A DNA stretch of 64,000 nucleotides, from NCBI GenBank assembly GCA_946187935.1, contig CAMHSJ010000006.1, positions 25,450-89,449 of the forward strand, given 5' to 3'. Numbering within the stretch: position 1 is the first letter of the stretch; each line of letters starts with the position of its first letter. Made by a program: the position numbers and the translations under genes. The notes beneath the pieces are model-generated. The model did not search any database and was not told the DNA's origin. It saw only the letters and a program-made list of their open reading frames with translations. Below, piece by piece: positions 323 to 18,597 of this stretch. The stretch comes from an uncultured Clostridia bacterium. Its GTDB lineage: Bacteria > Bacillota > Clostridia > Saccharofermentanales > Saccharofermentanaceae.

Positions 323-1180
323 ATGGATAAGTTTACTGTAGGCATAGTCGGGCTCGGACTCATCGGAGCATCCTTTGCAAAGGGTTTTAAGAGCAGCGGC
401 AAAGACATCAAGGTCATTGCATATAACCGCACCCAAACGACTCTTGATAAGGCAATAAGTGACGGAAATGCTGACGGCATTTTAGATGGAAGCAGTATAG
501 CGGAGTGCGATCTTATAGTCCTCGCGCTCTACCCTGAGGCAAGCGTCTCCTTCCTTAAGGAGAACGCGCCTCACATTAAGAAAGATGCCATAGTTACCGA
601 TGTCTGCGGCCTTAAAAGATACATCTGCAATGAAGGCTTTGCCCTCGCAGCAGAATACGGCTTCACGTTCATTGGCGGTCACCCGATGGCAGGCACGCAG
701 TTCTCGGGATACGACAACTCCAAAAGCGACATGTTCAATGGAGCTTCCATGATCCTCGTCCCTGATGCGGCCACTCCTGATGAGAAGATCGAAAAGCTCA
801 AGGCCATGCTCTCTAATCTTTCCTTCGGCAGGTTCGTCATTACGGATCCCGGATACCATGATAAGATGATAGCAATGACATCGCAGATGGCTCACTTAGT
901 CTCAAGCTGCTATGTTAAGAGCCCCGGAGCAGAAGAAGCGGAAGGCTTTACGGGAGGCTCCTTCCAGGACCTTACCAGGGTGGCATACCTTAATGCAGGC
1001 ATGTGGACGGAGCTGTTCCTTGAGAACAAAGACTATCTTCTGGAAGAGATAGAAGCTGTTCAGAAAGAACTGGAGCTGTACAGAAGAGCAATAGCAGCTT
1101 CCGACGACAAAGAACTCTACAGGCTCCTTGATGAGGGAAGCAGGATAAAAGAGAGGATACTGGGTAATGCAAAGGATTAA
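323..1180 (+). CDS. tyrA: Prephenate dehydrogenase
   Basis: Rossmann GIVGLGLIG, FIGGHPMAG, HD..IAMTSQMAH, GGSFQDLTRVA motifs; lies in aro operon. Confidence 0.92.
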   Translation: MDKFTVGIVGLGLIGASFAKGFKSSGKDIKVIAYNRTQTTLDKAISDGNADGILDGSSIAECDLIVLALYPEASVSFLKENAPHIKKDAIVTDVCGLKRYICNEGFALAAEYGFTFIGGHPMAGTQFSGYDNSKSDMFNGASMILVPDAATPDEKIEKLKAMLSNLSFGRFVITDPGYHDKMIAMTSQMAHLVSSCYVKSPGAEEAEGFTGGSFQDLTRVAYLNAGMWTELFLENKDYLLEEIEAVQKELELYRRAIAASDDKELYRLLDEGSRIKERILGNAKD

Positions 1181-2249
1181 TGTCAAGGCTTCAACAGATT
1201 ACGAGGTCGTCATTGGCGCAGGACTTCTGGATAAGTCAGGCTCTCTTATAAGGGAGGTTTGTCCCAAAGCGACCAAGGCGCTTATCGTAAGCGACACTAA
1301 TGTTGCGCCTCTTTATATGGACAGAGTTAAGTCTTCGCTTCTTAGCGAAGGCTTTGCTGTTTATGAGAGCGTCTTTGAAGCAGGTGAAGAGCGCAAGAAC
1401 ATAGATTCCATTATAGCCATGTGGGCTAAGATGGCAGAAGAAGGCTTTACCAGGACTGACATGGTAGTTGCCTTAGGCGGAGGCGTTACGGGCGACATGG
1501 CAGGCTTTGCGGCCGCTTCGTTTCTCAGGGGAATAAGAGTTGCCCAGCTGCCTACGTCTCTTCTTGCGATGGTCGATGCCTCCATTGGCGGCAAGACAGG
1601 CATAGATCTTCCCCAGGGCAAGAACCAGGTCGGTGCATTCCACCAGCCGTCCATCGTGATCGTGGACACGGACTGCCTTAAGACTCTCCCTGAAGAGACT
1701 TTCACCGAGGGCATGGGAGAGGTCATCAAGTACGCATACATAATGGACACTGATCTTTACGGGATCTTAAAGAATGTGTCTGACAAGAAGAATATAAGAG
1801 ATGACAGCATGATAATAGAAGTTATCATTGCAAAATGCGCTTCTGATAAGGCTTATGTCATTGAAATAGACGAGAACGACAACGGACTTAGGCAGACACT
1901 CAACTTCGGCCACACCGTAGGTCATGTCATCGAAAGAGACAATAACTTTACTCTTGCTCACGGCATGTGCGTTGCCAAGGGCATGGGCATCATGATCCGC
2001 GCGAGCGAAAAGGCCGGCAGGCTCGGCTGCAGCGAAGCCAAAGAGATGTTAGATCTCATTGAAGCTTATGGCCTTCCGTCAGATGATCCCATCACTCCCG
2101 AAGAGGCGACAAAGGGCGTCTTAAACGATAAAAAGAAGCGCGGCGACATCATATCGGTTATACTTGTTACATCTATCGGCAAGTCTGAGATCGTCAAGAT
2201 GACGCCTGATGAATTCAAGACATTTCTTAAGGAAGGCAAAGATCAGTGA
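1167..2249 (+). CDS. aroB: 3-dehydroquinate synthase
   Basis: ALGGGVTGDMAGF, PTSLLAMVDASIGGKTG, GEVIKY, LNFGHTVGH motifs. Confidence 0.96.
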   Translation: MQRINVKASTDYEVVIGAGLLDKSGSLIREVCPKATKALIVSDTNVAPLYMDRVKSSLLSEGFAVYESVFEAGEERKNIDSIIAMWAKMAEEGFTRTDMVVALGGGVTGDMAGFAAASFLRGIRVAQLPTSLLAMVDASIGGKTGIDLPQGKNQVGAFHQPSIVIVDTDCLKTLPEETFTEGMGEVIKYAYIMDTDLYGILKNVSDKKNIRDDSMIIEVIIAKCASDKAYVIEIDENDNGLRQTLNFGHTVGHVIERDNNFTLAHGMCVAKGMGIMIRASEKAGRLGCSEAKEMLDLIEAYGLPSDDPITPEEATKGVLNDKKKRGDIISVILVTSIGKSEIVKMTPDEFKTFLKEGKDQ

Positions 2250-3457
2250 TCGTATCCTTAAAGGGCAAAACATTTGATTTCACAGTGGAAGCTCCGCCTT
2301 CCAAGTCGATATACCACAGAGAGCTTATCGTGAGGTTCCTTCTGGGCGATACCGGGAACCTTGAAGATAAAGAAGGTGACAACGACGACTGCCTTGCGAC
2401 AAAAGCGTGCTTAAGAGCTCTTCTGCTAAGCAAGCCGGGCGAAGATGTTTTGCTTCCCTGCAAGGAAAGCGGATCGACTTTAAGGTTCATGATCCCCGTT
2501 GCGTCTGCATTCCTCTTAAGAGAGGGCAAAGCCGGCGGCAACAGGCTTATCTTCAGTACCGAAGGCCGTCTTTTTGACAGGCCTTTGGCGGAACTTGAAG
2601 ATGCCTTGAGGCCTCACGGGATAACTATTACCAAAGATGAAGATACCAGGACCATCATTGCATCGGGCATAATGACTCCCGGCAGATTTGTTATAGACGG
2701 CAGTGTCTCTTCGCAGTACATCTCAGGCCTTCTCATGGCGGCCGTACTGTTTGATGAAGACTTTAGCATCACGGTGACGGGCGGGATGAAATCCGTTCAC
2801 TATATCGAGCTTACACAGGATGTACTTGCCAAATACGGCATAGCATCAGAGTTAAAGGCTAATACTTATACAGTTGACAAAACGAATGTCATTAAGCCTG
2901 AAGGCGGTCTTAAAGTTGAAGGAGACTGGAGCAACGGAGCATTCCTGCTCTGTCTTAAGGCTCTTATCAGAAGGGGAGATATCAATGTGACCGGCCTTAA
3001 CATGGATTCGAGGCAGGGCGATACCGCAATATTGAGTTTTCTTGATGAAGCAAAGAAGACTGCAGGCAAAAAAGAAGTCTTCAGCTGCAGAGATATACCT
3101 GATATCGTTCCTTATATGGCAGTAACCTCGGCATTCTTCTTTGACAAGGCTGTATTCGAAGGGATCTCAAGGCTGCGCATCAAGGAGTGTGACAGGGTCA
3201 TGGCCGTAAGGGATCAGCTTGAAAGAGTCGGTGTAAAGACAGAAGAAACAGAAGACAGTCTCACGGTCTATGGTATAGGTAACAGGGAGATAGATGAGGT
3301 TATCTTTCTCCCGTCATATCACGATCACAGGATGGCGATGACAGCGGTCCTTCTTGCCGCGGCACTTGATGCAGATGTAGATATAGATGACATTGAATGC
3401 GTGAACAAATCCTTCCCGCAGCTTCAGGATTTGATCAGAAGGGAAATGATGCCATGA
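2246..3457 (+). CDS. aroA: EPSP synthase
   Basis: PPSKS..HR, ESGSTLRF, SSQYISGLL, KECDR, DHRMAM, KSFP motifs. Confidence 0.93.
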   Translation: MIVSLKGKTFDFTVEAPPSKSIYHRELIVRFLLGDTGNLEDKEGDNDDCLATKACLRALLLSKPGEDVLLPCKESGSTLRFMIPVASAFLLREGKAGGNRLIFSTEGRLFDRPLAELEDALRPHGITITKDEDTRTIIASGIMTPGRFVIDGSVSSQYISGLLMAAVLFDEDFSITVTGGMKSVHYIELTQDVLAKYGIASELKANTYTVDKTNVIKPEGGLKVEGDWSNGAFLLCLKALIRRGDINVTGLNMDSRQGDTAILSFLDEAKKTAGKKEVFSCRDIPDIVPYMAVTSAFFFDKAVFEGISRLRIKECDRVMAVRDQLERVGVKTEETEDSLTVYGIGNREIDEVIFLPSYHDHRMAMTAVLLAAALDADVDIDDIECVNKSFPQLQDLIRREMMP

Positions 3458-4548
3458 ACATGGAGAGCATTTTTAGAGGCGACAGATTAAAGCTTAAGAT
3501 CTACGGTGAGTCTCACAGCGAGACGATAGGTGTTTATATTGACGGGCTTCCGGAAGGAGTCACCCCTGACGAAGAGTTTGCGCAGAAGTTCATGCAGCGC
3601 AGGGCTCCCGGAAGGAATGCATGGTCCACTCCGAGGAAAGAGCCTGATACCCCTGTTTTCGAGAAGGAGGGGAGCACGCTTCATGCATATATCGTAAATA
3701 CCAACACCAAGCCCAAGGACTACGCGTCCATCATGAACAAGCCCCGTCCTTCGCATGCTGATTATACTGCCCCCATGATCTACGGCGGTCAGGCAGCGGT
3801 ATCAGGCGGAGGGATCTTTTCGGGCCGCATGACAGCGCCGCTTTGCATGGCAGGCGCCATCGCCTTGAACGAACTGTCCAAGATGGGCGTTAAGATCTAT
3901 GCGCACCTTAAGAGCATAGGTGATATCAGCGACGATAACTACTTTGACAACGGCGTAAACGATGAAAGCTATAAGAATGCTCTATCCAAGGTTCAGGTCA
4001 AGGATTTCCCCTGCGTTGACGATAAGAAAGCTGAGCAGATGAAAGATCTTATCGCCAAGGCAAGAGAGGACTTAGACTCGGTGGGAGGCGTTATAGAGTG
4101 CGTTGTCTACGGCCTTCCGGAAGGCTTAGGAGGCCCTCTGTTCGGAGGGATCGAGGGCAAGATCTCATCTTTGGTATTTGCCGTTCCCGCGGTTAAGGGC
4201 ATTGAGTTCGGCAACGGCTTTGAAGGCTCGAGATTAAGAGGCTCTGAGAATAACGATCCGTTCATGTTTGATGAGAGCGGCAGGATAAGGCTTAAGACAA
4301 ATCACAGCGGAGGGATATTAGGCGGCATAAGCGTAGGTGAAGCGGCGCCGGTTGTATTCAGCTGCGCCATGAAGCCCACGCCTTCCATCGGCAGGGAGCA
4401 GGAGACTGTAGACATCAAAGAGAAGGTCAATACGACACTCAAGATAGAAGGCCGTCACGATCCGTGCATCGCGCCCAGAGCAGTTCCTGTCATAGAAGCA
4501 GCCTGCGCCCTGGCGATCTATGATATGATCCTTACAAGGGAGGAATAG
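3454..4548 (+). CDS. aroC: Chorismate synthase
   Basis: GESHS, RPSHADY, SGRMTA, PAVKGIEFG, KPTPSI, GRHDPCI motifs; start moved to ATG 3454 (ATGA overlap with aroA stop). Confidence 0.96.
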   Translation: MNMESIFRGDRLKLKIYGESHSETIGVYIDGLPEGVTPDEEFAQKFMQRRAPGRNAWSTPRKEPDTPVFEKEGSTLHAYIVNTNTKPKDYASIMNKPRPSHADYTAPMIYGGQAAVSGGGIFSGRMTAPLCMAGAIALNELSKMGVKIYAHLKSIGDISDDNYFDNGVNDESYKNALSKVQVKDFPCVDDKKAEQMKDLIAKAREDLDSVGGVIECVVYGLPEGLGGPLFGGIEGKISSLVFAVPAVKGIEFGNGFEGSRLRGSENNDPFMFDESGRIRLKTNHSGGILGGISVGEAAPVVFSCAMKPTPSIGREQETVDIKEKVNTTLKIEGRHDPCIAPRAVPVIEAACALAIYDMILTREE

Positions 4549-4552
4549 AAAT

Positions 4553-6085
4553 ATGCCTGATCTGAATGAATTAAGAGAGCAGATAGATAACGTTGACGGT
4601 CAGATCATAGAACTCTTCGACAAGAGGATCGCGATAAGCCGCAAGATAGGAAACATCAAGCGCCTGACAGGCAAGGATGTTTACGATCCCGCAAGAGAAA
4701 AAGAGAAGATCGACAAGCTTTATGCCAGAGCCGGCTATGAGAGCAGGGCTTATGTCGAAGATCTCTACCGTGAGATGATGGCTTTATCCAAGAAGCACCA
4801 GTCCAAGCCCGCATTCGGCGTCCTGGGCAGGAGTCTGCCGCATACATATTCACCTGAGATCCATAACATACTGTGTCCTGATTACTCTTACGATGTCATC
4901 GAGATGGAGCCTGAGCAGCTGGATAATCTTTTCTCCTGCGGAGTCTTCAAGGGTTTTAACGTAACGATCCCCTATAAGAAAGAGGCAGCTTCGAGAAGTG
5001 ATGTCCTCGATGATGCAGCTGAGGCTACGGGCAGCGTCAACACGGTGGTCTTCGGAGATGACGGCAAGACATACGGCTATAACACCGACTGCTACGGCTT
5101 CATGTATATGGTATCCGGAAGCGGCATCGATATCAGCGGCGAGAAGGTCCTTGTGCTCGGCACCGGCGGCGCTTCTTCGTCCATTAAGTTCGCTCTTAAG
5201 GAGCTCGGCGCCGGCGAGATAATAGAATGCGGCAGAAAAAGTGAAGTTAATTACGGCAATGTTTATGAGATGGCAGGAGACTGCGGCGTCATAGTCAACT
5301 GCACTCCCGTGGGGACATTCCCCGATGTGGATAACAGCCTCCTTGAATTAGAGAAGTTCGGAAGGCTTAAGGCATGTTTTGATCTTGTCTATAACCCTTC
5401 GAGGACCAAGTTCATCCAGCAGGCACAAAAGCTCGGCATCAAGACAACGGGCGGCCTGCCGATGCTCGTCGCTCAGGCTTACAAGGCATCACTCCTCTTC
5501 AGGGGCGATAAGGACAGCGCCGCTAAGATCCCCGAAGGCAGGATAAAGGATATCGAGGACACAATAAGAGTGCTCGAAAAGCGTATGAGGAACATCACTC
5601 TCATAGGCATGCCGGGCTCGGGCAAGACAACGCTTGCCAAGAAGATCGCGAAGATCACGGGAAGGACCATGGTGGATCTGGACTGGGCATATAAGGACAG
5701 GTTCGGCATGACATCTGCCGATGCCATAGAAGGCCTGGGCGTTGATACATTCAGGGACAATGAGACGCTTGTAGCAGCCGAGATGCTGCCTAAGAGCGGA
5801 CTAGTCATCTCCTGCGGAGGCGGCATCGTCACAAGGCCTGAGAACGAGCTCTATGTAAGATGCAATTCCAATGTCTTCTATATCGAAAGACCTTTGTCGG
5901 GACTCTCGGATCACAACCGTCCCGAGACTATAATGCACGGAGTCGAAGCTTTGTACGAACAGCGCAAGGACAAGTACGAAACCTGGTGCGATCACAAGCT
6001 CTTCTTCGACAGATTTGAGAACTATGACGATTACACGAGTGCAGCCGTGTCCGAGATACTCGCCATATTAGACAGAGAGGAATGA
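4553..6085 (+). CDS. Fusion: chorismate mutase + shikimate dehydrogenase + shikimate kinase
   Basis: N-term LNELREQIDNVD..R..IS.KIG..K..DPARE (AroQ-type mutase); middle NVTIPYK, NTD, GTGGAS, DLVYNP (AroE); from aa ~345 IGMPGSGKTT, DLD, FR..E, SCGGG (AroK). Confidence 0.9.
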   Translation: MPDLNELREQIDNVDGQIIELFDKRIAISRKIGNIKRLTGKDVYDPAREKEKIDKLYARAGYESRAYVEDLYREMMALSKKHQSKPAFGVLGRSLPHTYSPEIHNILCPDYSYDVIEMEPEQLDNLFSCGVFKGFNVTIPYKKEAASRSDVLDDAAEATGSVNTVVFGDDGKTYGYNTDCYGFMYMVSGSGIDISGEKVLVLGTGGASSSIKFALKELGAGEIIECGRKSEVNYGNVYEMAGDCGVIVNCTPVGTFPDVDNSLLELEKFGRLKACFDLVYNPSRTKFIQQAQKLGIKTTGGLPMLVAQAYKASLLFRGDKDSAAKIPEGRIKDIEDTIRVLEKRMRNITLIGMPGSGKTTLAKKIAKITGRTMVDLDWAYKDRFGMTSADAIEGLGVDTFRDNETLVAAEMLPKSGLVISCGGGIVTRPENELYVRCNSNVFYIERPLSGLSDHNRPETIMHGVEALYEQRKDKYETWCDHKLFFDRFENYDDYTSAAVSEILAILDREE

Positions 6086-8487: not shown

Positions 8488-9045
8488 ATGAACGAACGCG
8501 TAAACGTCGTTCTTTATGAGCCTGAGATACCCCAGAATACCGGCAATATAATGCGCACCTGCGTTGCAGCAGGCGTGGGGCTTCACATAATAGGGCCATG
8601 CGGCTTTGACCTTGAGGACAAGAGGTTCAAGAGGGCCACGACAAACCACATTACCTGGGCTGATTACGAATTCTATAAAGACTTTGGCGATTTTAAGTCA
8701 AGGCAGACGGAAGGCGAGTTCTTCTTCATGACAAGATACGGCAGGAAGGCTCCGTCTGATATTGATTTTGCGGGCATCCCCGGTGATAAGAAGATCTATC
8801 TGTTCTTCGGCAAGGAGAGCACAGGCATCCCCGAAGAGATATTAAGAGCCAACCTTGAAAGGTGCTTCAGGATACCCATGACAAAAGACTGCAGGTGTCT
8901 TAACCTGAGCAACGCCGCCGCCATCGTCATCTACGAGGCGATGCGCCAGTTAGGCTACCCCGGCCTTGCAACGGAAGAGGTCCAGAAGGGCGCGGATCAT
9001 CTGGAAGAATACTCCTATGATGCCACGCTCAGATTAAAGCCTTAG
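8488..9045 (+). CDS. trmL: tRNA (cytidine/uridine-34 2'-O)-methyltransferase, SPOUT
   Basis: [38 protein letters not shown]; true start ATG 8488 rather than ORF-track 8260. Confidence 0.92.
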
Positions 9046-9791
9046 AGAACTTTGTTGAGGAATGCCTTGAGCCTGTCGTTCTGAGGATTCGTGAAGATCT
9101 GCTCAGGCGTGTTCTCCTCTAATATCTTGCCCTGGTCCATGAAGATGACCCTGGTGCCGACTTCTCTGGCAAATCCCATCTCGTGCGTAACGCAGACCAT
9201 GGTCATGCCGCCGTCAGCAAGCTGCTTCATAACTTCGAGAACTTCTCCTACCATCTCAGGATCGAGTGCCGATGTCGGCTCATCGAAAAGCATGACCTCG
9301 GGCTCCATCATGAGCGCTCTTACAATGGCGATACGCTGCTTCTGTCCGCCTGAGAGCTGCGAAGGATATGAATCTATACGGTCCGCCAGATTTACTCTGG
9401 CCAGAAGGTCTTTGCAGCGCTTCTCCGCATCCTCAGCGGAAAGTCCCAGGATCTTCATCGGAGCAAGCGTCATGTTGCGCTTGATCGTGAGATGAGGGAA
9501 GAGGTTAAAATGCTGGAAGACCATACCCATCTTCTGTCTGAGCTTGTTTATGTCTGTCTTGGCCGAGAGCAGGTCCTCGCCTTTGAAGATGATGGATCCT
9601 GATGTCGGACGTTCGAGAAGGTTAAGGGATCTTAAAAAAGTCGATTTGCCTGAACCTGAAGGTCCTATTACAACTACCACTTCGCCCTTGCGGATGTCGG
9701 TGGAGATGCCGTCTAACGCCTTGATGGCGCCGCCGTTATAGTGCTTGCACAGATCCTTAACGGAGATCAATACATCATTATCAGCGCTCAC
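9042..9791 (-). CDS. Polar amino-acid ABC transporter ATP-binding protein (GlnQ family)
   Basis: [44 protein letters not shown]. Confidence 0.95.
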
Positions 9792-10581
9792 TGTTTCTCA
9801 GCCTCCTCTCGAGTAAGGATACGAGCTTGGTAAAGAACATTACGATGACAAGATAGATCAGGGCTACTGCGATAAGAGGCATGTAAGCCGAGTAAGACAG
9901 GGATCTTATGATGTCTCCGCCCTTGGACAGGTCCTCGAGACCGACGTAACCTGAGATGGACGTTTCCTTGATAAGAACTATGAACTCGTTGGCCAGTGCG
10001 GGCAGAACGGTCTTTAATGCCTGAGGGATGATGATGTAAGCCATGGTCTGGATGTAGTTAAGTCCCAGAGATCTGCCGGCTTCGAACTGGCCCGGGTCGA
10101 TGCTCATGATGCCGCTTCTTATTATCTCGGCGACATAGGCTCCTGAATTGATCCCGAATGCGAGAGTCGCGATGAGGATCTTGTTGTTGGAACTCTTCCA
10201 GATGATGAAGTATGCGATCATGAGCTGTACGACGGTAGGGGTGCCCCTTATTACCGTGAGATAGACCCTGCTGATATTGTCCAGGATGCCGAGAACGGTC
10301 TTTCCCAGTCCGGGATGGAGCTCGTCGTCGAGCTTGTCGTGTGAAGATCTGATTATCGCTACTATTACGCCTAAGGCAATGCCTATGAGCGTCGCAAAGA
10401 AAGTAACGGTAAAGGTAACGCCGAGACCCTTGAGGATATACTTGTACCTGTTGCCCGTTACGAAGTTATTTATAAAATCGAGCTTAAGGCTGGTCCAGGT
10501 CTTAAGAAGCCAAGCCCAAACAGTGGCAAAAAAGCCCGATGGCTCAGCAGTCTCTAAAACGATGCGCGTTAACGCGTCCAT
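9781..10581 (-). CDS. Polar amino-acid ABC transporter permease
   Basis: [34 protein letters not shown] motifs. Confidence 0.94.
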
Positions 10582-10623
10582 GTGTTACCTCCGTTTTTCA
10601 AACAAGGCTTATATTTTATAAAG

Positions 10624-10660
10624 AAAACAGGCGGAAATAAAGACCTATTTCCACCTGTTT
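10624..10660 (-). terminator. Intergenic stem-loop after substrate-binding gene (terminator or mRNA stabiliser)
   Basis: AAACAGGCGGAAATA ... TATTTCCACCTGTTT inverted repeat. Confidence 0.55.
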
Positions 10661-10690
10661 ATGCATTTTTAAACCTTAAGTCTGAACGAA

Positions 10691-11485
10691 TTATGATTCA
10701 GCAGGGATGTACTTTGAGATGATGGCCTGAAGTGTGCCGTCAGCCTCGAGCTCAGCAAGAGCGCCGTTTACTGCTTCAAGAAGCTCTTCGTTGTTCTTGT
10801 TGATAGCCATTGCGTACTCTTCTTCAGCATAAGCTGTGTCGAGGATAGCAAGACCTTCGTTAGCTGCAACGAATGCCTTGGCAGGCTCGTTGTCGATAAC
10901 GACTGCATCAACCTTGCCGGAGATAAGAGCAACAACTGCGTCGTTGCCTCTTGCATAACGGTCAACTCTGTCTTCGCCTACGCCGCCGTTCTCAGGTGTG
11001 TCGGACATGTAGATGTCGCCTGTTGTACCGGACTGAACACCAACGATGTAATCACCCTCTAAGAGAGTGTCAACGTCTGTGATCTCAGAACCCTCAAGAA
11101 CGATTACTGACTGGATGCCTGTAGCATAAGTTGTCGTGAAGTTAACAGACTGAAGTCTTGACTCCGTAACTGTCATGCCTGCGCAGCCGATGTCGTACTT
11201 GCCTGACTGAACGCCGGCGAGGATGGAATCGAATGAAACGTCCTCGATAACGAGCTCAAGTCCGAGCTTGTCAGCAACTGCCTGTGCGATCTCAACGTCG
11301 ATGCCCTCGATGTTCTCGCCCTCATAGTACTCATAAGGCGGGAAGAATGCGTTTGTAGCCATGATGAGCTTGCCTTCTTCGACAGTCATGCCGCCCTCTG
11401 TTGTCTTGGAAGAGCATGCAGCCATTCCGAATGCCATAGTAGCTGTAAGAACTGTGGCAATGATCTTCTTTGTGAAAGATTTCAT
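10691..11485 (-). CDS. Polar amino-acid ABC transporter substrate-binding lipoprotein
   Basis: Lipobox MAAC, ATNAFFPPYEY, GIDVEIA, GVQSGTTG; start ATG 11485 after AAGGAG. Confidence 0.93.
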   Translation of the reverse strand: MKSFTKKIIATVLTATMAFGMAACSSKTTEGGMTVEEGKLIMATNAFFPPYEYYEGENIEGIDVEIAQAVADKLGLELVIEDVSFDSILAGVQSGKYDIGCAGMTVTESRLQSVNFTTTYATGIQSVIVLEGSEITDVDTLLEGDYIVGVQSGTTGDIYMSDTPENGGVGEDRVDRYARGNDAVVALISGKVDAVVIDNEPAKAFVAANEGLAILDTAYAEEEYAMAINKNNEELLEAVNGALAELEADGTLQAIISKYIPAES

Positions 11486-11681
11486 AACATTAGTCTCCTT
11501 GTCTAAAAATTGACACAATCATAATACCTTGTCGAAAACAATGTGTGAATTGTCATACAATCAGAAAAAAATTATAAATTCTCACACTGCTTTATGCATT
11601 TACCAAAAAAGGAAGTTTTAGATTGCCGTTTTGCTTCCGTATTAGTAAAATAAATAAAGAAATTTGAAAGGCGATGACCCC

Positions 11682-12935
11682 ATGAAACGTATCCTTATCT
11701 TAGGATGTAACGATATAGCAAAACGACTTCTTCTTGCGCTCATAGACGATCCTATCTACCATTCAGGCATATGCATAGCATCCCGCAACAAAGAGGACTG
11801 CGATGAACTTAAGGACCTGGCAATGAGCAAAGGTGAGAGGATCACAACAGCCGGCATAGACGTAAACAATGTAAGCGGCGCCATGATGATGATCCGCATA
11901 ACGGCTCCTGAACTGGTCGTTAACCTCCTCCCGCCCGAGATGAGCCCCAATGCATTGGAGCTTGCTCTTCAGGCAGGTGCATCATATCTTGACGGAGCAC
12001 TGTTCAATGTACCCGCTGAACCTACGGAGGCTTCACTCCTGTCAGAGCAGTTCAAGTCCTTCGGAGACTTCAGGAGCAAGGGCAAGACAGCCATAGTCGG
12101 CTGCGGACTTAATCCCGCAGGCATCACAGCGATAATTGGACGCATTGCCAAGAGGGATTTCGACGCTATCAGCGGTGTTGATATAGTCGAGATAAAGAGC
12201 GGAGCAGCACCCAAAGCTGCAAAGAAGAAGGGTGATGAGGGCATACTCTATTCAGAGGACATCAAGATGCCTTCTTCAAATACTGATGGCAAGACGCACC
12301 CCGTATTTACAGTCAGGGACGGAGCATTAAAGACTGAAGAGGCATTCACCATATCTGCCAAGAGCAAAGAAGGCAATACGGTATATGTTTCAGACAACGA
12401 GATCATCACAGACATCTTAAAGGAGCTTCCTTCGGTCAAGAATGCAAGATACTTTACTACAGGCGTAAAACCTGAAGAGCGCATCCCACCCCAGGATCTC
12501 ATAGACACATTAAAAGACTTGGGACTCCTGTCCGAGGAGAAGATCAAGGTCGGTGATGTAATGGTTGCCCCCATAGATGTAGTCGCCAAGGTCCTTCCCA
12601 AGATGAGCGGGGCAGCAGAAGAAGGTGATGAAACGCCTCTTACAGGCTTATACAGCCTTGAGCTCTACATCACAGGAACAAAGGGCGGCAAGGAGATCAC
12701 AAAACTCTACCGCATAACAGGCGATAATGATAAGAGCAAGGCAGAAAACGGCTGTGACGCACTTAGATACCTGAACGGCACGGTACTTATTGAGTCTTGC
12801 AAATTAATGTGCAATGATAAATGGAACAGGCCCGGAGTGTACACACCTGCAGAATTCGAAGCCGAGCTCCTGTACAATGCGATGAGCAAGGCAGGTATCA
12901 AGATAGAAGAATCAGACAGCAACCCCATTATCTGA
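11682..12935 (+). CDS. Saccharopine-dehydrogenase-like / carboxyspermidine dehydrogenase homologue, degenerate active site
   Basis: Colinear with family motifs (ICIASR, ITTA..D, GCG.NP, AKVLP, KW.RPGVY..EF) but GxGxxG reads GCNDIA. Confidence 0.75.
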   Translation: MKRILILGCNDIAKRLLLALIDDPIYHSGICIASRNKEDCDELKDLAMSKGERITTAGIDVNNVSGAMMMIRITAPELVVNLLPPEMSPNALELALQAGASYLDGALFNVPAEPTEASLLSEQFKSFGDFRSKGKTAIVGCGLNPAGITAIIGRIAKRDFDAISGVDIVEIKSGAAPKAAKKKGDEGILYSEDIKMPSSNTDGKTHPVFTVRDGALKTEEAFTISAKSKEGNTVYVSDNEIITDILKELPSVKNARYFTTGVKPEERIPPQDLIDTLKDLGLLSEEKIKVGDVMVAPIDVVAKVLPKMSGAAEEGDETPLTGLYSLELYITGTKGGKEITKLYRITGDNDKSKAENGCDALRYLNGTVLIESCKLMCNDKWNRPGVYTPAEFEAELLYNAMSKAGIKIEESDSNPII

Positions 12936-12954
12936 CGGAACGGAGGATGGACAT

Positions 12955-13893
12955 ATGGCAGATTATACCGACCCCGCATTTAAAGCACAGGTAGACAAGA
13001 TCGCGATCGATACGATCCGCAACAAGATGACCGACACGGTATATTTCAAGGACCGTGATTCCAAGTTCATCTGGAATAATGTAGGACATGCCATACAGCT
13101 CGGGGTAGCAAGCCCTGACGATCTTCTGGGCAAGAGCGACTTCGATTTCTTCCCCAAGGATTTCGCGCAGTCAGCAAGAGACACGGAGATCACCGTTATG
13201 GCCTCCGGTGAGCCTATCTGCAACATCATCGAGGAACTCGTATTAGACGATAACAACGTCAGATACTTCATGGCTTCCAAGTACCCTCTCTACGATGACA
13301 AGGGCGAGATCATCGGTACATGGGGCGTCAGCAAGGACGTAACGGATCAGAAGGTCCTGGAGCGCGAACTCCAGCGTTCTTACAGCAAGATGGAACTTCT
13401 TGCGCGTGTTGACGATCTGAGCGGACTTTACAACAGACGCTATTTCTATGAGAAGCTCGAGCAGATGACAAGCCTTTATAACAGCAGGGAAGACGGAAGC
13501 ACCTTCTCCATCATTGTTATCGACGTAGACGACCTCAAGATGATCAACGACCAGTTCGGTCAGATGAGCGGCGATATCGTCTTAAGGAGCATCGCAGATA
13601 CGCTCCTCAGCAACACCAAGAAGGCAGATACATGCTTCAGGATCGGCGGTGATGAATTCGCTGTCGCACTTATGGATTCAGATAAGATGAAGGCTCTGGG
13701 TATCGCAAAGCAGATAATCAATGCTATTGCATCCAAACCGGTAGAGATCGAAGGAAAGAAAGAGAAGATCACAGTCTCAGCAGGTCTCGTTACTTACGAT
13801 AAGGAGAATCCGAGCCTGTCAGAACTCTTGTCCGTCGCTGAGCGGAAAGTTAATAAATCCAAGAGAGAAGGAAAGAATCAGGTTTCTTTCTAA
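12955..13893 (+). CDS. PAS-domain diguanylate cyclase
   Basis: PAS (YFKDRDSKF..NN, GKSDFDFFP, KYPLYD..GEIIGT.G); D.LSGLYNRR, DVDDLK.IND.FG..GD, RIGGDEF. Confidence 0.93.
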   Translation: MADYTDPAFKAQVDKIAIDTIRNKMTDTVYFKDRDSKFIWNNVGHAIQLGVASPDDLLGKSDFDFFPKDFAQSARDTEITVMASGEPICNIIEELVLDDNNVRYFMASKYPLYDDKGEIIGTWGVSKDVTDQKVLERELQRSYSKMELLARVDDLSGLYNRRYFYEKLEQMTSLYNSREDGSTFSIIVIDVDDLKMINDQFGQMSGDIVLRSIADTLLSNTKKADTCFRIGGDEFAVALMDSDKMKALGIAKQIINAIASKPVEIEGKKEKITVSAGLVTYDKENPSLSELLSVAERKVNKSKREGKNQVSF

Positions 13894-14023
13894 TGGCCTT
13901 CCCGGGAACGGGAGGCTTCAGACGCAATGTGTAAGGTGAATAATTATGCGGAGGAACGTCTGAAGCTCCGATTCCGGCAGAAAGGAGTTAGAAACAATGG
14001 CGCAGCAGTCTGCTTGGTCGGGT

Positions 14024-14257
14024 TTATGCTGCGCGTCTTACTGTGGGCGTATTAGGGTGGACAGTAGTCTTAGCCCTGGAGCTGTTATGCATGGAAGCTC
14101 TGATGCAGGCGTTGACGTTAACATCCCTCTTGGCGCCGTGCCTGGGCTGACGCATAGCCTCTTCATCAAAATCCTTCCAGAATTCAACGCACTCGAGTGT
14201 GCACTTAACAGCGACAAGTATTATGCAAAAGAAAAACATCATATCAAAGGGCGACAT
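14024..14257 (-). CDS. Small 77-aa protein with N-terminal hydrophobic helix, unknown function
   Basis: AGGAGG 5-6 nt before ATG 14257; MSPFDMMFFFCIILVAVKCTL...VRRAA; extended -10 TGATATACT upstream. Confidence 0.6.
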   Translation of the reverse strand: MSPFDMMFFFCIILVAVKCTLECVEFWKDFDEEAMRQPRHGAKRDVNVNACIRASMHNSSRAKTTVHPNTPTVRRAA

Positions 14258-14407
14258 ACTTACCTCCTGTGAACGAAAATCGTTCATTTGTTCTTTATGC
14301 TGGTAGTATATCACAGATAGAGGGTGAATAATAGGACTAAATTGCAGAAAAGAACAAAACAAGAACGCAAAAACAGAACGAAGTGTTCTTTTCTGTAAAA
14401 ATGAGTT

Positions 14408-15796
14408 TTAACCGAACCTCTTCATCAGCAAGACATTGCTGATAACAAGGATCAGGGCAACGCCGGATGCAAGGATATTAAGTGCCTTTTCGCTGATAAG
14501 TTCCTTCTTGCGGAGCTTGCCCAGCAATACGACGATCACATAGATCATGGCAAAGTTGGTAAAAATGGATGTCCTTGCGCCTGATGCATAAACCGTAGGC
14601 GAGAAGCCCATGACGGCAGTTGTTGACAGACCGCCGAGAAGAACGATGCTCAAGGTAAAAGCGTCCTTGATACCGAATACATCAAACAGGGTAAACAGAA
14701 TAGCTCCGAAAGAGATCACCATGAAGGCAATGGGGATATAGATCCTGATATCGTGAAGATTAGGATCGGATATCTGCCCGAGATCGTAGATCGAGAAAAC
14801 ATGGTGAAGGACGAACAGTATGACAGAAGGCAGAGAGGCAACAAGATATGTCACTTTCTTCCTGGCATAAACAAAAGCAGCAAGGGCTGTAAGCAGCGCC
14901 AGTACGATATATACTGCGTTCATCTTGTAGATATACACATTGCATGTGTAATGAAGACCCTTGTATATCTTGTCGGGCAAGGTCAGATCTCCGAATACCG
15001 GATCCCAGTAATTTGTCTCGGCAGCGGATCTTGCCGAATTGCCGGGAGACAGCAGGATGAACGCCAGATTCAAAGCGTTAATGACAAGAGCTGATATGAG
15101 AAGTCCATGCACTTTTATCTTGCTTACAATGCAGTAGATGATACTGTAAGAGATGATCATGAACAGGAAAGCTGCCAGCAGTTCGTGATCGCACGCAAGG
15201 AGCAGGGCGATATAGAACAAGGGGTACTCGAACCATTTGATCTTACATTCAGAACTGCAGCACCTTCTTATCAGAAGACAGCAGCATACTCCGAAGAATG
15301 CCGGCCAGAAGTAAGTGATGGTGGTGCAGATCCAGCCTGCAGACCTAAGGTCCAGGATAGGGTAGATAAGAAATGCTGCGCAGCTGAACATGTAAGCCGT
15401 AAAGTCACCTTTGACAAGCCTTGTGATAACAAACGGGAATGCGATGTATATGACAGTGTTGATCATCTTCCAGACAAAGGGATGCCATATCAGGTAGAAT
15501 CCCATGCCTTCCTGAAGCACTCTTGCTGACCAGTTAAGATACCTGTACTTTACCCATTCGAACATGGTATAGCCTTCAGTGATCGCCTTGGATGCCGCAT
15601 CGTCAGACAGATCCATCTTCGCAAAGGCATTAACAAGTATGGCACCTGCTATGAAAGCAAGCACGAACGCTATCTGCCATATTTCTATCTTTTTGCCTTT
15701 GATACTGAACACTAAACAACCAGTCCTGAACACTAATGTCTGTAAAAACAGTAAGGTAATTATAACATGCGGCAAATCAAGAAAGTATAGATACAT
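14408..15796 (-). CDS. Polytopic membrane protein, DUF6056/GT-C-like putative glycosyltransferase
   Basis: About 10+ TM segments; DD...RYLNWSAR, AGWICTTITYFW, SPGNSAR pattern; true start possibly GTG 15712. Confidence 0.6.
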   Translation of the reverse strand: MYLYFLDLPHVIITLLFLQTLVFRTGCLVFSIKGKKIEIWQIAFVLAFIAGAILVNAFAKMDLSDDAASKAITEGYTMFEWVKYRYLNWSARVLQEGMGFYLIWHPFVWKMINTVIYIAFPFVITRLVKGDFTAYMFSCAAFLIYPILDLRSAGWICTTITYFWPAFFGVCCCLLIRRCCSSECKIKWFEYPLFYIALLLACDHELLAAFLFMIISYSIIYCIVSKIKVHGLLISALVINALNLAFILLSPGNSARSAAETNYWDPVFGDLTLPDKIYKGLHYTCNVYIYKMNAVYIVLALLTALAAFVYARKKVTYLVASLPSVILFVLHHVFSIYDLGQISDPNLHDIRIYIPIAFMVISFGAILFTLFDVFGIKDAFTLSIVLLGGLSTTAVMGFSPTVYASGARTSIFTNFAMIYVIVVLLGKLRKKELISEKALNILASGVALILVISNVLLMKRFG

Positions 15797-15902
15797 AGCC
15801 CTCTCTCATTGTCGGGAAAACTGCTGTGTCCTATCGGAACACCATACACAAAGAGGCACTTAATACCATTGAAACATGTAAGAATCATTAGGGGGACAGA
15901 TC

Positions 15903-16763
15903 ATGAAACACATAAGAACAATCTCAATGTTAGTCTTAAGCTCTATGCTCATAACGTCATTAGCAGGCTGTAGTTCAAATAAGCAGAGCATGGAAGAAAT
16001 AATAGCTACGGCAGAAAGCGCAATAGCCACGCCGACACCTGTACCCGGCAATCCGGAGCAGGCCATTATTACCAGTGGAGATTTAGTTTTTAAGAAGATC
16101 ACTGATGATTACTATCAAGTTAACGATGAAGTCAAAGCCTTTGTTTGGCTTAAATATAACTATCAGCCCAATGATGTAAACATAGCAGTAGAAGAGTGGT
16201 CTTCATCTGATGAGACCGTGGCCACTGTCAGTGATGACGGAAAGCTTACTCCGGTAGGTTTAGGTGAGTGTGAGATTACTCTTCATATATCTGATGGTCT
16301 AACTAATGGTACGACTACAAGTATAAGTGTTACTGTAGAAGACGGAATAATCGAACTGGAAGATCAGGATCTTCCGAGTTTCAGCGAACTCAAGCGCATT
16401 TGCAAGGATTCTTATGGAGATATCTTTAGTGAATATGATGACAGTATTGACAATGCATTGAGTTGGGATGAAGATACCCCGTTCATAAATCTTGGTAACA
16501 ATACAACTGATTTTTACAAGGATTACTCCACGGTTGAAAAACTGATCTTTAATAGTGGGAAATTCGTGATCTGCCATTGCGGAGATAGTGTAGTTTTTAT
16601 TACTGGCTCTTCATATGCTGTTCTTTGTGATGAATACCTGTTTTACTATTTTGGATGCGACACTCCCGGTATACCAATAGACTACGATGACTTAATAGAC
16701 ATCCACGATAAAACCGGCCTCCCCATACCTGATGAAGAGGCCGTCAGCGAATTGTTTGATTAA
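15903..16763 (+). CDS. Acidic lipoprotein with Ig-like (Big_2-type) domain
   Basis: Lipobox LAGC; WSSSDETVATVSDDGKLTPVGLGECEIT Big_2 signature. Confidence 0.75.
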   Translation: MKHIRTISMLVLSSMLITSLAGCSSNKQSMEEIIATAESAIATPTPVPGNPEQAIITSGDLVFKKITDDYYQVNDEVKAFVWLKYNYQPNDVNIAVEEWSSSDETVATVSDDGKLTPVGLGECEITLHISDGLTNGTTTSISVTVEDGIIELEDQDLPSFSELKRICKDSYGDIFSEYDDSIDNALSWDEDTPFINLGNNTTDFYKDYSTVEKLIFNSGKFVICHCGDSVVFITGSSYAVLCDEYLFYYFGCDTPGIPIDYDDLIDIHDKTGLPIPDEEAVSELFD

Positions 16764-16770
16764 CTGAAGT

Positions 16771-18597
16771 TTAAAGCGCAGATGAGCTGCCGATCCTCGA
16801 AGCGCCGGCGTCTATCATGGCCTGTGCAGCTTCGGGGGTCCTGATGCCGCCTGCGGCCTTGACCTTGACGCCCCGGGCAACGTTTTGGGCCATGAGCTTA
16901 ACGTCTTCTATGGCCGCGCCGTTCGTGCCGAAGCCCGTGCTGGTCTTGATAAAGTCCGCGCCTGCGCTGCTTACTGCTTTGCAGAGTTTTATCTTCTCTT
17001 CCTCCGTGAGGAAGCATGTCTCGATTATAACCTTGAGTATCGCGCCCTTGGCGTGGACCGCTTCCGCGATCAGGCGGATCTCATTTTCGACCTTATCAAG
17101 ATTGCCGTTCTTGACCTCGTTGATGTTTATTACCATGTCGATCTCAGAGGCTCCGTTGTCTGCCGCATCGATCGCTTCGAACACTTTGACTGCCGTTGTC
17201 TGATAGCCGTTGGGGAAGCCTATTACTGTGCAGATCTTAAGCCTTCCTTCTGCTATCCTAACGCCGTCCCTTACATAGCAGGGAGGTATGCATACGCTCG
17301 CGCAGCCTGAGGATATTGCCTTGTCGATAAGATCTTCGATGTCTTTTATGGTCGCCGTCTGCTTTAAGTTGGTCAGATCCACATAAGATGCGATATTGCC
17401 TTCTTTGGGCGTGTTGTCAATGTCAGGAAATACTCTGGGAAGAGGCCTTCTCATAAGGGCGTTAAAGACTATGCCAGAGATATTGCCAAAGCCTATGAGC
17501 TCGCCCATGTTGTGAGGGACCTCATATCCTTCGCCATAGATAAGGAGCGGGATGGTCTCTCTTGAATGGTCCGTCGAAACTGTGGACGGATCGCAGCCGT
17601 GGTCTGCTGTTATTATGAGAAGATCGTCTCTTCTCATGTTATCAAGGAACGTGCCAAGTGCATCGTCAAATTCATGCATGGCAGCTGCGTATCCCGCGAT
17701 GTCGTTTCTGTGTCCGTACTTCATGTCGAAGTCTACAAGGTTTACGAAGCAAAGGCCGTTAAAGTCCCTGTTTTGTATCTCAAGGAGCTTACTGATCCCG
17801 TCGGTGTTGCCCGATGTAGGGTTGGATTCCGATATCCCGTGCCCTGCGAAAAGGTCGTTGATCTTTCCTACGGATATCGTCTCAAAACCGTAGTTTCTTA
17901 AGATGTCCATCATGTTGGAAGACGGCGGTGCGGCTGAAAAATCGTGCCTGTTTGAAGTTCTCGTATAATTGCCGGCTGTGCCTGTAAAAGGCCTTGCTAT
18001 TATCCTTCCGACATTGTCTTTGCCTGTCATGAACTGCCTCATCTTTGAGCAGATCTTATAGAGTTCTTCCAAGGGAACCACATCTTCATGCGCTGCTATC
18101 TGCAGCACGCTGTCTGCTGAAGTGTAGACGATAAGATCTCCCGTCTTCACGTGCTCTTCGCCGTAGTCTTTTATGACTTCCGTACCGCTGTAGGGCTTGT
18201 TGCAGAGAACGCCTCTTCCCGAGACTTTCCTTATCTCATCTAAGACATATTCGGGGAATCCGTCAGGATATGTGGGCTGCGGAATGGCGGAAAGGATACC
18301 TGCGATCTCCCAGTGGCCTATGGTCGAATCCTTGCCCTGAGACACTTCGCGGACGATGCCGTAAGAACCGATGGGATCAGGCTTTTCGCTTACATTTGCA
18401 AGGTAGTTTCTTTCCCTCTCATCGAAAAGGCCGTCGATGTCAAAAAGCCCCATCCTTGACAGGTTGGGGAAGGGCTTATCTGAGTCTGACAAGACAGCAG
18501 CCAGAGTGTTGCTGCCTTCATCACCGAAGGATGCTGCATCAGGCGCAAGTCCGGTGCCGAAACTGTCTAATACAACAAGAAATACACGCTTTGCCAT
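16771..18597 (-). CDS. deoB: Fusion: phosphopentomutase (DeoB) + deoxyribose-phosphate aldolase (DeoC)
   Basis: VLDSFG, GKDSTIGHWE, IIARPF, DMKYGHR, TADHG in aa 1-385; CTVIGFPNG, EIDMV, KVIIET, FIKTSTGF, KAAGGIR, RIGSS in aa ~400-608. Confidence 0.93.
   Translation of the reverse strand: MAKRVFLVVLDSFGTGLAPDAASFGDEGSNTLAAVLSDSDKPFPNLSRMGLFDIDGLFDERERNYLANVSEKPDPIGSYGIVREVSQGKDSTIGHWEIAGILSAIPQPTYPDGFPEYVLDEIRKVSGRGVLCNKPYSGTEVIKDYGEEHVKTGDLIVYTSADSVLQIAAHEDVVPLEELYKICSKMRQFMTGKDNVGRIIARPFTGTAGNYTRTSNRHDFSAAPPSSNMMDILRNYGFETISVGKINDLFAGHGISESNPTSGNTDGISKLLEIQNRDFNGLCFVNLVDFDMKYGHRNDIAGYAAAMHEFDDALGTFLDNMRRDDLLIITADHGCDPSTVSTDHSRETIPLLIYGEGYEVPHNMGELIGFGNISGIVFNALMRRPLPRVFPDIDNTPKEGNIASYVDLTNLKQTATIKDIEDLIDKAISSGCASVCIPPCYVRDGVRIAEGRLKICTVIGFPNGYQTTAVKVFEAIDAADNGASEIDMVININEVKNGNLDKVENEIRLIAEAVHAKGAILKVIIETCFLTEEEKIKLCKAVSSAGADFIKTSTGFGTNGAAIEDVKLMAQNVARGVKVKAAGGIRTPEAAQAMIDAGASRIGSSSAL

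Follow-up and report, generated by a model that had tools for sequence, protein, structure and literature searches.

What does a saccharopine-dehydrogenase-like gene do directly in front of a diguanylate cyclase gene? The question is raised by two genes at positions 11682-13893 of a 64,000-nucleotide stretch of contig CAMHSJ010000006.1, from an uncultured bacterium of the family Saccharofermentanaceae (Clostridia); "the window" below means this whole stretch. The upstream gene (11682-12935, + strand) encodes a protein of 417 amino acids (aa), here called SDHL, with matches in Pfam, NCBIfam, and the PDB, and the downstream gene (12955-13893, + strand) encodes a PAS-GGDEF diguanylate cyclase of 312 aa. 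The original prediction for this locus saw in SDHL a dead polyamine-pathway enzyme that senses polyamines, aspartate semialdehyde, or basic amino acids and controls synthesis of cyclic di-GMP (c-di-GMP) by the cyclase. Our analysis reveals that the pairing of the two genes is real and old, being reproducible in >40 genomes, and, at the level of individual residues, SDHL is well supported as a catalytically dead paralogue of carboxyspermidine dehydrogenase (CASDH), a "pseudo-dehydrogenase". A functional link between SDHL and the cyclase is plausible but unproven.

SDHL is predicted to retain the three-domain saccharopine-dehydrogenase-like fold of CASDH. Specifically, it scores 46 bits against Pfam Sacchrp_dh_NADP, 30.7 bits against Sacchrp_dh_C (marginally short of the cutoff of 31), and 79.2 bits against the NCBIfam carboxynorspermidine synthase equivalog NF043000, which does not reach the cutoff of 800. 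Its nearest solved relatives are the CASDHs 4rl6, 8deb, 4ina, and 8h4z, with 23-27% identity over the full length. An AlphaFold2 model of SDHL computed from a 22-sequence alignment has a mean pLDDT of 85 and a pTM of 0.78, and its best PDB matches in Foldseek are again CASDH structures (TM 0.68-0.73), with 8deb at the top (0.70-0.73). The polyamine-pathway descent proposed for SDHL is therefore upheld both by sequence and by Foldseek. A hydropathy scan over 19-residue segments did not reveal a transmembrane segment in either the cyclase or SDHL (maxima 1.19 and 1.45), indicating that both proteins are cytoplasmic.

The residues that make CASDH an enzyme have been assigned in the Bacteroides fragilis protein (BfCASDH): the GxGxxG loop, residues 8-13, binds pyrophosphate; S34, T36, and K39 bind the NADPH 2'-phosphate; the nicotinamide is contacted by T103, F139, D140, and P141; aspartate semialdehyde and putrescine are held in place by E188 and E229 together with H228, which is also the general base; and E230 and S144 form a proton relay (PMC10413350). 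We compared 43 canonical CASDH sequences with 59 SDHL-family sequences (43 close members and 16 basal members). G10, G11, T36, T103, D140, E188, H228, E229, and E230 are invariant in the canonical enzymes, and position K39 is Lys in 41 and Arg in 2. The glycine loop of the window protein, in contrast, reads L-G-C-N-D-I-A (G8-A13) against the canonical I-G-[AC]-G-G-V-[AG], and all 43 close SDHL-family members have Asn at position G10 and Glu or Asp at position G11. An acidic residue, Asp or Glu, occupies position K39 in each of these 43, a charge reversal at the 2'-phosphate lysine, and almost every family member carries N, Q, R, K, or D at position T36. T36, T103, and D140 are replaced throughout the close members, with the 16 basal members more varied. 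In the former catalytic centre, position H228 is never His (59/59; Ser, Asn, Asp, and one Arg), position E229 is mostly Pro (Glu is kept in 2/43), position E230 is hydrophobic, and position E188 is replaced in 59/59 without a conserved substitute; the window protein has N239-E240-I241 at H228-E229-E230 and T201 at E188. A K/E-rich insertion of low model confidence (SDHL residues 175-204) lies in the loop capping the active site, and inside it the active-site loop FATNFN has become a family-specific LYSEDxK (L189-Y-S-E-D-x-K195). The degenerate dehydrogenase of the original prediction is thus confirmed at the glycine loop, the 2'-phosphate binders, the H-E-E triad, and E188: SDHL agrees with CASDH in fold and descent and departs from it in every functional feature that can be tested.

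The SDHL gene is nevertheless under strong purifying selection and is not decaying. The ratio of non-synonymous to synonymous substitution rates (dN/dS) is 0.02-0.11, and 0.02-0.09 for genome pairs with unsaturated dS (0.3-0.6), a range that matches the neighbouring transporter and tRNA-methylase genes. Conservation is highest in the Rossmann-like domain (0.72), followed by the dimerisation-like segment (0.65) and the former catalytic domain (0.57-0.60). Among nucleotide-site residues, S34, D60, and N81 are kept across the family and R35 is present in 39/59; R53 is the sole near-invariant Arg.

The family of SDHL is small, and its members are restricted to Clostridia of the rumen and gut that resemble Saccharofermentans. 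In a word-indexed search, ~72 clusters matched SDHL at 45-99% identity; a second tier followed at 34-35% and the canonical enzymes at 24-28%. A profile search run exhaustively over 1.84 billion representative proteins yielded only 32 clusters at E < 1e-30. Named sources comprise Saccharofermentans, 'Mageeibacillus', and metagenome-assembled genomes of Ruminococcaceae and Clostridiales (rumen, horse, and other gut), and the cultured carriers are the isolates Ruminococcaceae bacterium YAD3003 and AB4001. The window's own SDHL sequence is present in bovine and sheep gut metagenomes. Distant members form a gradient of degeneration: P0134 (L070, 6001-7233) retains G-C-G-K-L-A and H-E-V, and P0152 (L075) retains G-C-G-G-V-A and has lost the H-E-E triad. 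Judging from these motifs, P0134 and P0152 may be intermediate or independently degenerated CASDH paralogues on a path from enzyme to pseudo-enzyme. Long hits considered as Rosetta-stone fusions were rejected, being canonical enzymes joined to Orn/Lys decarboxylase, MMPL, SMC, binding-protein, or spermidine synthase fragments.

SDHL and the cyclase gene form a bicistronic operon with a putative promoter at ~11623-11651. The SDHL start is ATG 11682: MK[RK] opens all homologues, and the upstream TTG 11664 is unnecessary. The divergent intergenic region between an ABC binding-protein gene and the operon (11486-11681) contains a promoter-like TTGCCG-17-TAAAAT at 11623-11651 on the + strand, found by promoter scan, and a GAAAGG ribosome-binding site 9 nt ahead of the ATG; the three closest relatives (L001-L003) keep both the block AAGTAAAAT..AAAGAAATTTGAAAGGCGA and the -35/-10-like stretch. 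The SDHL stop codon (TGA, 12933-12935) is followed by a 19-nt spacer (12936-12954, + strand, CGGAACGGAGGATGGACAT) with GGAGG at 12942-12946, 8 nt 5' of the cyclase ATG 12955, which is the GGAGG-containing gap of the original prediction. The spacer is too short to leave room for a promoter or terminator, and promoter and terminator scans of the junction revealed no site resembling either. A search of the window against Rfam at the gathering threshold gave no match, and hence no riboswitch or leader match at the operon. Metatranscriptome contigs (covering 12864-13034 and 12934-13084) cross the junction at low depth; this is weak evidence of a joint transcript, since one metatranscriptome run also spans the divergent promoter region and DNA carry-over is therefore possible.

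The downstream protein is apparently a catalytically intact cyclase with all GTP and metal motifs present. It comprises a PAS_4 domain (residues 25-133, nt 13027-13353, 49 bits), which has conserved residues and is without a recognisable cofactor motif, and a GGDEF domain (residues 151-309, nt 13405-13881) that scores 124.4 bits in Pfam (cutoff 23.8); the cyclase scores 134.8 bits against TIGR00254 (cutoff 37.4), and its Pfam annotation contains no EAL domain. Aligned to 4urs/4urg, the cyclase keeps the D-x-LTGL-NRR, D-x-D..K-x-IND-x-G..GD, R-x-GGDEF, and K-x-K-R-x-G-K-N blocks. In particular, D190-x-D192, K195, N198-D199, G206-D207, R229, and K-x-K-R-x-G-K-N match 4urs and are invariant in 54 orthologues, and the GGDEF motif (residues 231-235, nt 13645-13659) is kept in 53/54. 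These features, together with the absence of a transmembrane segment in the scan described above, agree with the soluble cyclase with intact GGDEF that had been predicted. So does the inhibitory I-site, which lies five residues ahead of GGDEF and reads K222-K-A-D225 (nt 13618-13629) in place of RxxD; the RxxD site is optional for membership of the diguanylate cyclases. RxxD is present in 47 of the 54 orthologues, KxxD in 6, and a degenerate active site in 1; the KxxD carriers have KKAD in the window and L001-L003 and KKQD in L054 and L057. KxxD was accordingly rejected as a meaningful feature of the system, and the I-site Lys is, by this census, a recent, lineage-specific, and conservative change, not a design feature. 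The most divergent orthologue (L047, ~11691-12605, 46% identity) has N-G-D-D-E-F instead of GGDEF and is probably inactive.

The original prediction had named linkage in relatives as its own check, and the pair passes it. The scan of relatives covered one genome per species (64 loci), with the window proteins mapped onto the loci. In 42 other species-level genomes a PAS-GGDEF gene follows SDHL on the same strand after a gap of 10-48 nt with GGAGG or GAGG; at these loci SDHL is at least 41% identical and the cyclase orthologue 58-89% identical to its window counterpart, and the operon arrangement predicted from the 19-nt spacer is thereby repeated. At 11 basal loci (SDHL 31-36% identity) the cyclase gene is again downstream and on the same strand, further off: 1.9 kb in L050, L054, and L057, behind an ABC-2 ATPase and permease, and 4.4-4.9 kb in L045 and seven others, where genes for an OmpR-type regulator, an ABC-2 ATPase, a pair of permeases, and a histidine kinase intervene. 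The metagenome contigs L067-L069 and L066 repeat both layouts. In L067-L069 and the 11 basal genomes, SDHL opens and the cyclase gene closes one co-directional ABC-2 cluster, with or without a two-component system, and in basal relatives the SDHL gene is followed within 1-19 nt by regulator or ABC-2 genes (L045, 7168-11486; L050, 7330-9185; L068, 7355-9194; L071, 8214-12753). L070, the locus of the most enzyme-like member, P0134, has a PAS-GGDEF gene of 30% identity 2 kb upstream on the opposite strand. The claim of a putatively co-transcribed pair thus stands for the window and the 42 adjacent genomes and fails in basal lineages with intervening genes or no cyclase. Most likely, the tight two-gene operon arose by loss of exporter genes; the ancestral cluster probably contained the regulator/ABC-2/kinase module, which the window lineage then lost. 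In many basal relatives the exporter is accompanied by an OmpR-type regulator and a small histidine kinase, a set that looks like a peptide or envelope-stress detoxification module. TrmL was tried as a proxy for species distance and dropped, as it saturates at ~70% identity and is useless across the deep split.

How much this linkage is worth depends on what surrounds it. Some observations reach further than inherited gene order: the two genes share a direction and a junction too short for a promoter, a terminator-like hairpin closes the unit after the cyclase gene in close relatives, and the low-depth metatranscriptome contigs described above cross the junction. The pair has been kept together while other parts of the gene block gained or lost genes (the TrmL-to-importer spacing; the insertion of DUF6056 and lipoprotein genes in the window), and it remains tight in 43 species-level genomes though the proteins have diverged to 45-60% identity. 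In a comparison of pairwise-distance matrices, SDHL and the cyclase rank first of the 28 gene pairs in the block for rate covariation, with a residual r = 0.78 after subtraction of the mean of the other six genes, a value reached in 0/2000 permutations. This covariation hints at coupling and is suggestive only.

Several observations weigh against a functional partnership. The entire block (Na/Pi cotransporter, TrmL-like methylase, the pair, a small convergent membrane-protein gene, phosphopentomutase-DeoC, and DEAD-box helicase) is collinear across the clade, reaching contigs where SDHL is only 30% identical, so linkage is the null expectation and weak evidence of partnership. The covariation background is high, with unrelated pairs at 0.5-0.6, and SDHL and the cyclase are the fastest-evolving genes in the block, for which reasons covariation was rejected as proof of interaction. 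Three lineages (L049, L051, and L071/L072) have the regulator-exporter-kinase cluster and no cyclase in the flank, indicating that SDHL can be retained where no cyclase is linked. With canonical enzymes as the root, a neighbour-joining tree (no bootstrap) places the separated layouts as basal and the adjacent layout as a derived clade. The profile search of 1.84 billion representative proteins did not reveal a fusion of the dead SDHL family to a signalling domain. Finally, the cyclase has its own input domain, because it carries a PAS domain, and with RxxD in most orthologues it needs no partner for regulation.

With these points in the balance, we tentatively favour, at somewhat less than an even chance, a role for SDHL as a non-catalytic accessory protein co-expressed with the cyclase and acting in the same c-di-GMP pathway. 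SDHL would be made together with the cyclase from one bicistronic transcript, and dimeric SDHL would bind the cyclase and promote or block productive GGDEF dimerisation, with a ligand at the remodelled SDHL cleft as a possible addition. GGDEF enzymes act as dimers; since GGDEF needs dimerisation, the Rossmann-like and dimerisation-like parts of SDHL are best kept, and LYSEDxK is new, this dimeric-partner mechanism is the one we favour for a first test. A more specific proposal, that the SDHL family is a trans-acting regulatory subunit of the PAS-GGDEF cyclase, either sensing a small molecule at the LYSEDxK cleft or templating cyclase dimerisation, we regard as unlikely. The main rival, only a little less likely than the accessory role, is that the two genes share a transcript and no function: SDHL would then have a role of its own, perhaps from the ancestral two-component/ABC-2 cluster, and adjacency would have come about through deletion of the intervening genes. 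The basal loci, where a response regulator or ABC-2 ATPase gene and not a cyclase gene lies within 1-19 nt of SDHL, are consistent with this explanation, as are the clusters of L049, L051, and L071/L072 without a cyclase, the collinearity of the block across the clade, and the derived position of the adjacent form in the tree; yet after the exporter was lost the pair stayed tight in 43 species-level genomes, down to 45-60% protein identity, over a span in which the rest of the block gained and lost genes, and SDHL-cyclase covariation is the highest in the block.

Other explanations place SDHL at the output of the pathway, in metabolism, or at a polyamine input. Receptors for c-di-GMP have repeatedly arisen from degenerate enzymes, and a cyclase gene is commonly paired with an effector gene. 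SDHL could accordingly be a receptor for c-di-GMP (or GTP), co-made with the producer of its ligand and binding it through the remodelled nucleotide-binding domain; this domain is the best-conserved part of the protein (0.72 versus 0.57-0.65 elsewhere) and keeps S34, D60, and N81, and R35 in 39/59. We consider such a receptor improbable: no known c-di-GMP-binding motif was recognised in SDHL, a single Arg (R53) is near-invariant, and SDHL persists where no cyclase is linked. Strong purifying selection, conservation of LYSEDxK at the old active-site loop, and the existence of intermediates such as P0134, with G-C-G-K-L-A and H-E-V, would suit a protein that has remained catalytic, through NAD(P)H-free chemistry or an unusual, non-canonical cofactor site. 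Against this, the second glycine of GxGxxG has become Asn followed by an acidic residue in 43/43 close members, the charge at the 2'-phosphate lysine is reversed, the general-base His is lost in 59/59, and the catalytic-like domain is the least conserved, which together make retained catalysis quite improbable. The ligand part of the original prediction, in which SDHL has polyamines, carboxyspermidine, aspartate semialdehyde, or basic amino acids as its ligands and signals to the cyclase in the manner of a cytoplasmic NspS-MbaA, is not borne out and must be judged very improbable. It draws on the descent of SDHL from CASDH, on the operon shared with the cyclase, and on the Lys/Arg/Orn-type polar-amino-acid importer that is divergent in 43 adjacent genomes. 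However, the NADPH site is gone; E188, E229, H228, E230, and S144 are all replaced, most being not conserved within the SDHL family; and FATNFN has been exchanged for LYSEDxK in an insertion of low model confidence. The residues that hold the substrate were lost along with the catalytic ones, which removes the sole sequence-based reason for binding of polyamines or aspartate semialdehyde. In addition, the importer is absent from basal members and its binding protein falls under the specific NCBIfam cutoffs, and no polyamine gene, including that for carboxyspermidine decarboxylase, was found among the genes annotated at 1-33 kb of the window or within 6 kb to either side of the related loci, the rest of the genomes not having been searched. 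On these sequence grounds, polyamines, aspartate semialdehyde, and basic amino acids appear unsupported as ligands of SDHL, and nothing points to them.

The operon is flanked on its 5' side by this polar-amino-acid ABC importer, identified by Pfam and NCBIfam, whose three genes lie on the - strand at 9042-11485, as predicted (binding lipoprotein, 10691-11485/11518; permease, 9781-10581; ATPase, 9042-9791). The importer is divergent from the operon in the window and all 42 adjacent loci, whereas the basal loci lack it; no specific NCBIfam cutoff is reached by its binding protein. Further upstream, at 323-6085 and ahead of the Na/Pi transporter, lies a shikimate/chorismate cluster (prephenate dehydrogenase, dehydroquinate synthase, EPSP synthase, chorismate synthase, and a chorismate mutase-shikimate dehydrogenase-shikimate kinase fusion), the order of which is repeated in L071.

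On its 3' side, the cyclase gene is followed by a conserved structured stretch (13894-14023, + strand) with a long imperfect hairpin at ~13905-13975 and a conserved loop (GAGGTGTGTGGAGAA-like). RNAfold gives z = -2.8, the alignments A3 and A5 contain a few compensatory changes, and folds of the + strand are more stable than those of the - strand in 25/25 distinct sequences, the window included. An nhmmer profile places the element at the same site in >20 loci (L001-L009, L014-L017, L021, L024-L028, L033-L040, L063, and L068/L069). An invariant 9-mer, TTGGTCGGG, at 14014-14022 abuts the stop codon of the convergent small gene and is exact in 25 loci. In most relatives the element opens with a terminator-like hairpin, GGCCGGGA-N4-TCCCGGCC, followed by TTGCTTTTT; this hairpin lies ~27 nt past the cyclase stop and has a T-rich tail, and its 3' half can alternatively pair with a downstream AGCAAGGCCGG. 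A 10-sequence MAFFT alignment misaligned the stems between subclades, and a comparison with Rfam gave no match, with none at E <= 5 in 13850-14450.

The convergent small gene (14024-14257, - strand), previously unannotated, encodes a 77-aa single-pass membrane protein (MSPFDMMFFFCIILVAVK...EFWKDFDEEA). The protein opens with MSPFDMM FFFCIILVAVK, has a hydropathy of 2.24 at residues 6-24, and carries a basic tail; the region upstream of its gene (14258-14300) contains a conserved promoter-like TGTGATATACT and AGGAGG. In tblastn searches the gene is found at this position in ~45 loci, among them basal loci and the cyclase-less L049 and L051; Pfam has no hit on record for the counterparts in L068 and L071. 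Two genes are inserted at 14408-16763, between the 77-aa gene and phosphopentomutase-DeoC: a DUF6056 membrane-protein gene (14408-15796, - strand), missing from relatives, and a lipoprotein-like gene (15903-16763, + strand; 286 aa, no Pfam match), found among relatives only in L002. The next gene (16771-18597, - strand) encodes a 608-aa fusion of a phosphopentomutase-like metalloenzyme and DeoC aldolase and has the same position in 44 loci.

Little is understood about how c-di-GMP signalling works in the anaerobic Firmicutes of the gut, most cyclase inputs being unknown, and well-defined cases of bacterial pseudo-enzymes turned regulators are still rare. If SDHL does control the cyclase, it would represent a new class of cytoplasmic input protein in a tractable, soluble two-protein system with cultured relatives (YAD3003 and AB4001), and the first dead metabolic enzyme in Firmicutes to act as an input to c-di-GMP synthesis. 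If it does not, SDHL still defines a conserved pseudo-enzyme family. The label 'saccharopine dehydrogenase, NADP-binding', which annotation pipelines currently attach to the family, wrongly implies metabolic activity and could mislead polyamine-pathway reconstruction in rumen metagenomes.

A literature search did not reveal a paper linking saccharopine-dehydrogenase-like proteins with diguanylate cyclases in the present sense, or one mentioning Saccharofermentans together with c-di-GMP, and, within the papers searched, the statement of the original prediction that no such system was known holds for both the SDHL family and the pairing. Known systems resemble the pair in part. With CASDH (B. 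fragilis 8DEB, H. pylori 8H4Z, and the 'saccharopine dehydrogenases' 4RL6 and 4INA), SDHL has in common the three-domain fold with its dimerisation-like segment and the scaffold residues G8, S34, P76, N81, Y102, D104, P145, W381, and G385; unlike CASDH, it has the K/E-rich insertion and replacements in the glycine loop, the 2'-phosphate binders, H-E-E, and E188, and its operon neighbour is a GGDEF gene, not carboxyspermidine decarboxylase. The GGDEF domain of the window cyclase can be aligned from end to end with those of solved cyclases (the PAS-GGDEF cyclase Thermotoga TM1788, 4URS/4URG; PleD, 1W25), keeps the catalytic motifs, and differs from them in the KxxD I-site, which is RxxD in most orthologues.

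Among regulators, NmrA, Gal80, and HSCARG are eukaryotic Rossmann-fold pseudo-dehydrogenases that act through protein-protein contact and have kept dinucleotide binding, whereas the dinucleotide loop of SDHL is destroyed. H-NOX and NosP are stand-alone cytoplasmic sensors, co-transcribed with GGDEF/EAL enzymes and regulating them in trans, with a defined haem ligand site; SDHL, in contrast, has no nameable cofactor or ligand site. The NspS protein of the NspS-MbaA system (Vibrio cholerae, Sinorhizobium meliloti), a homologue of periplasmic binding proteins, has kept its ability to bind polyamines, and MbaA is a membrane GGDEF-EAL protein (PMC8079147, PMC9993111). SDHL and its cyclase differ from NspS-MbaA in that both are cytoplasmic, the partner is a putative dead enzyme without a substrate site, and the cyclase is without EAL; of the features of an NspS-MbaA-type system, a recognisable ligand-binding site is missing from SDHL, whereas co-transcription of the accessory gene is predicted in the window from the 19-nt spacer with its ribosome-binding site. 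The two systems are alike in that a protein of polyamine-handling descent is encoded beside a c-di-GMP enzyme, with control of that enzyme being, for SDHL, a proposal.

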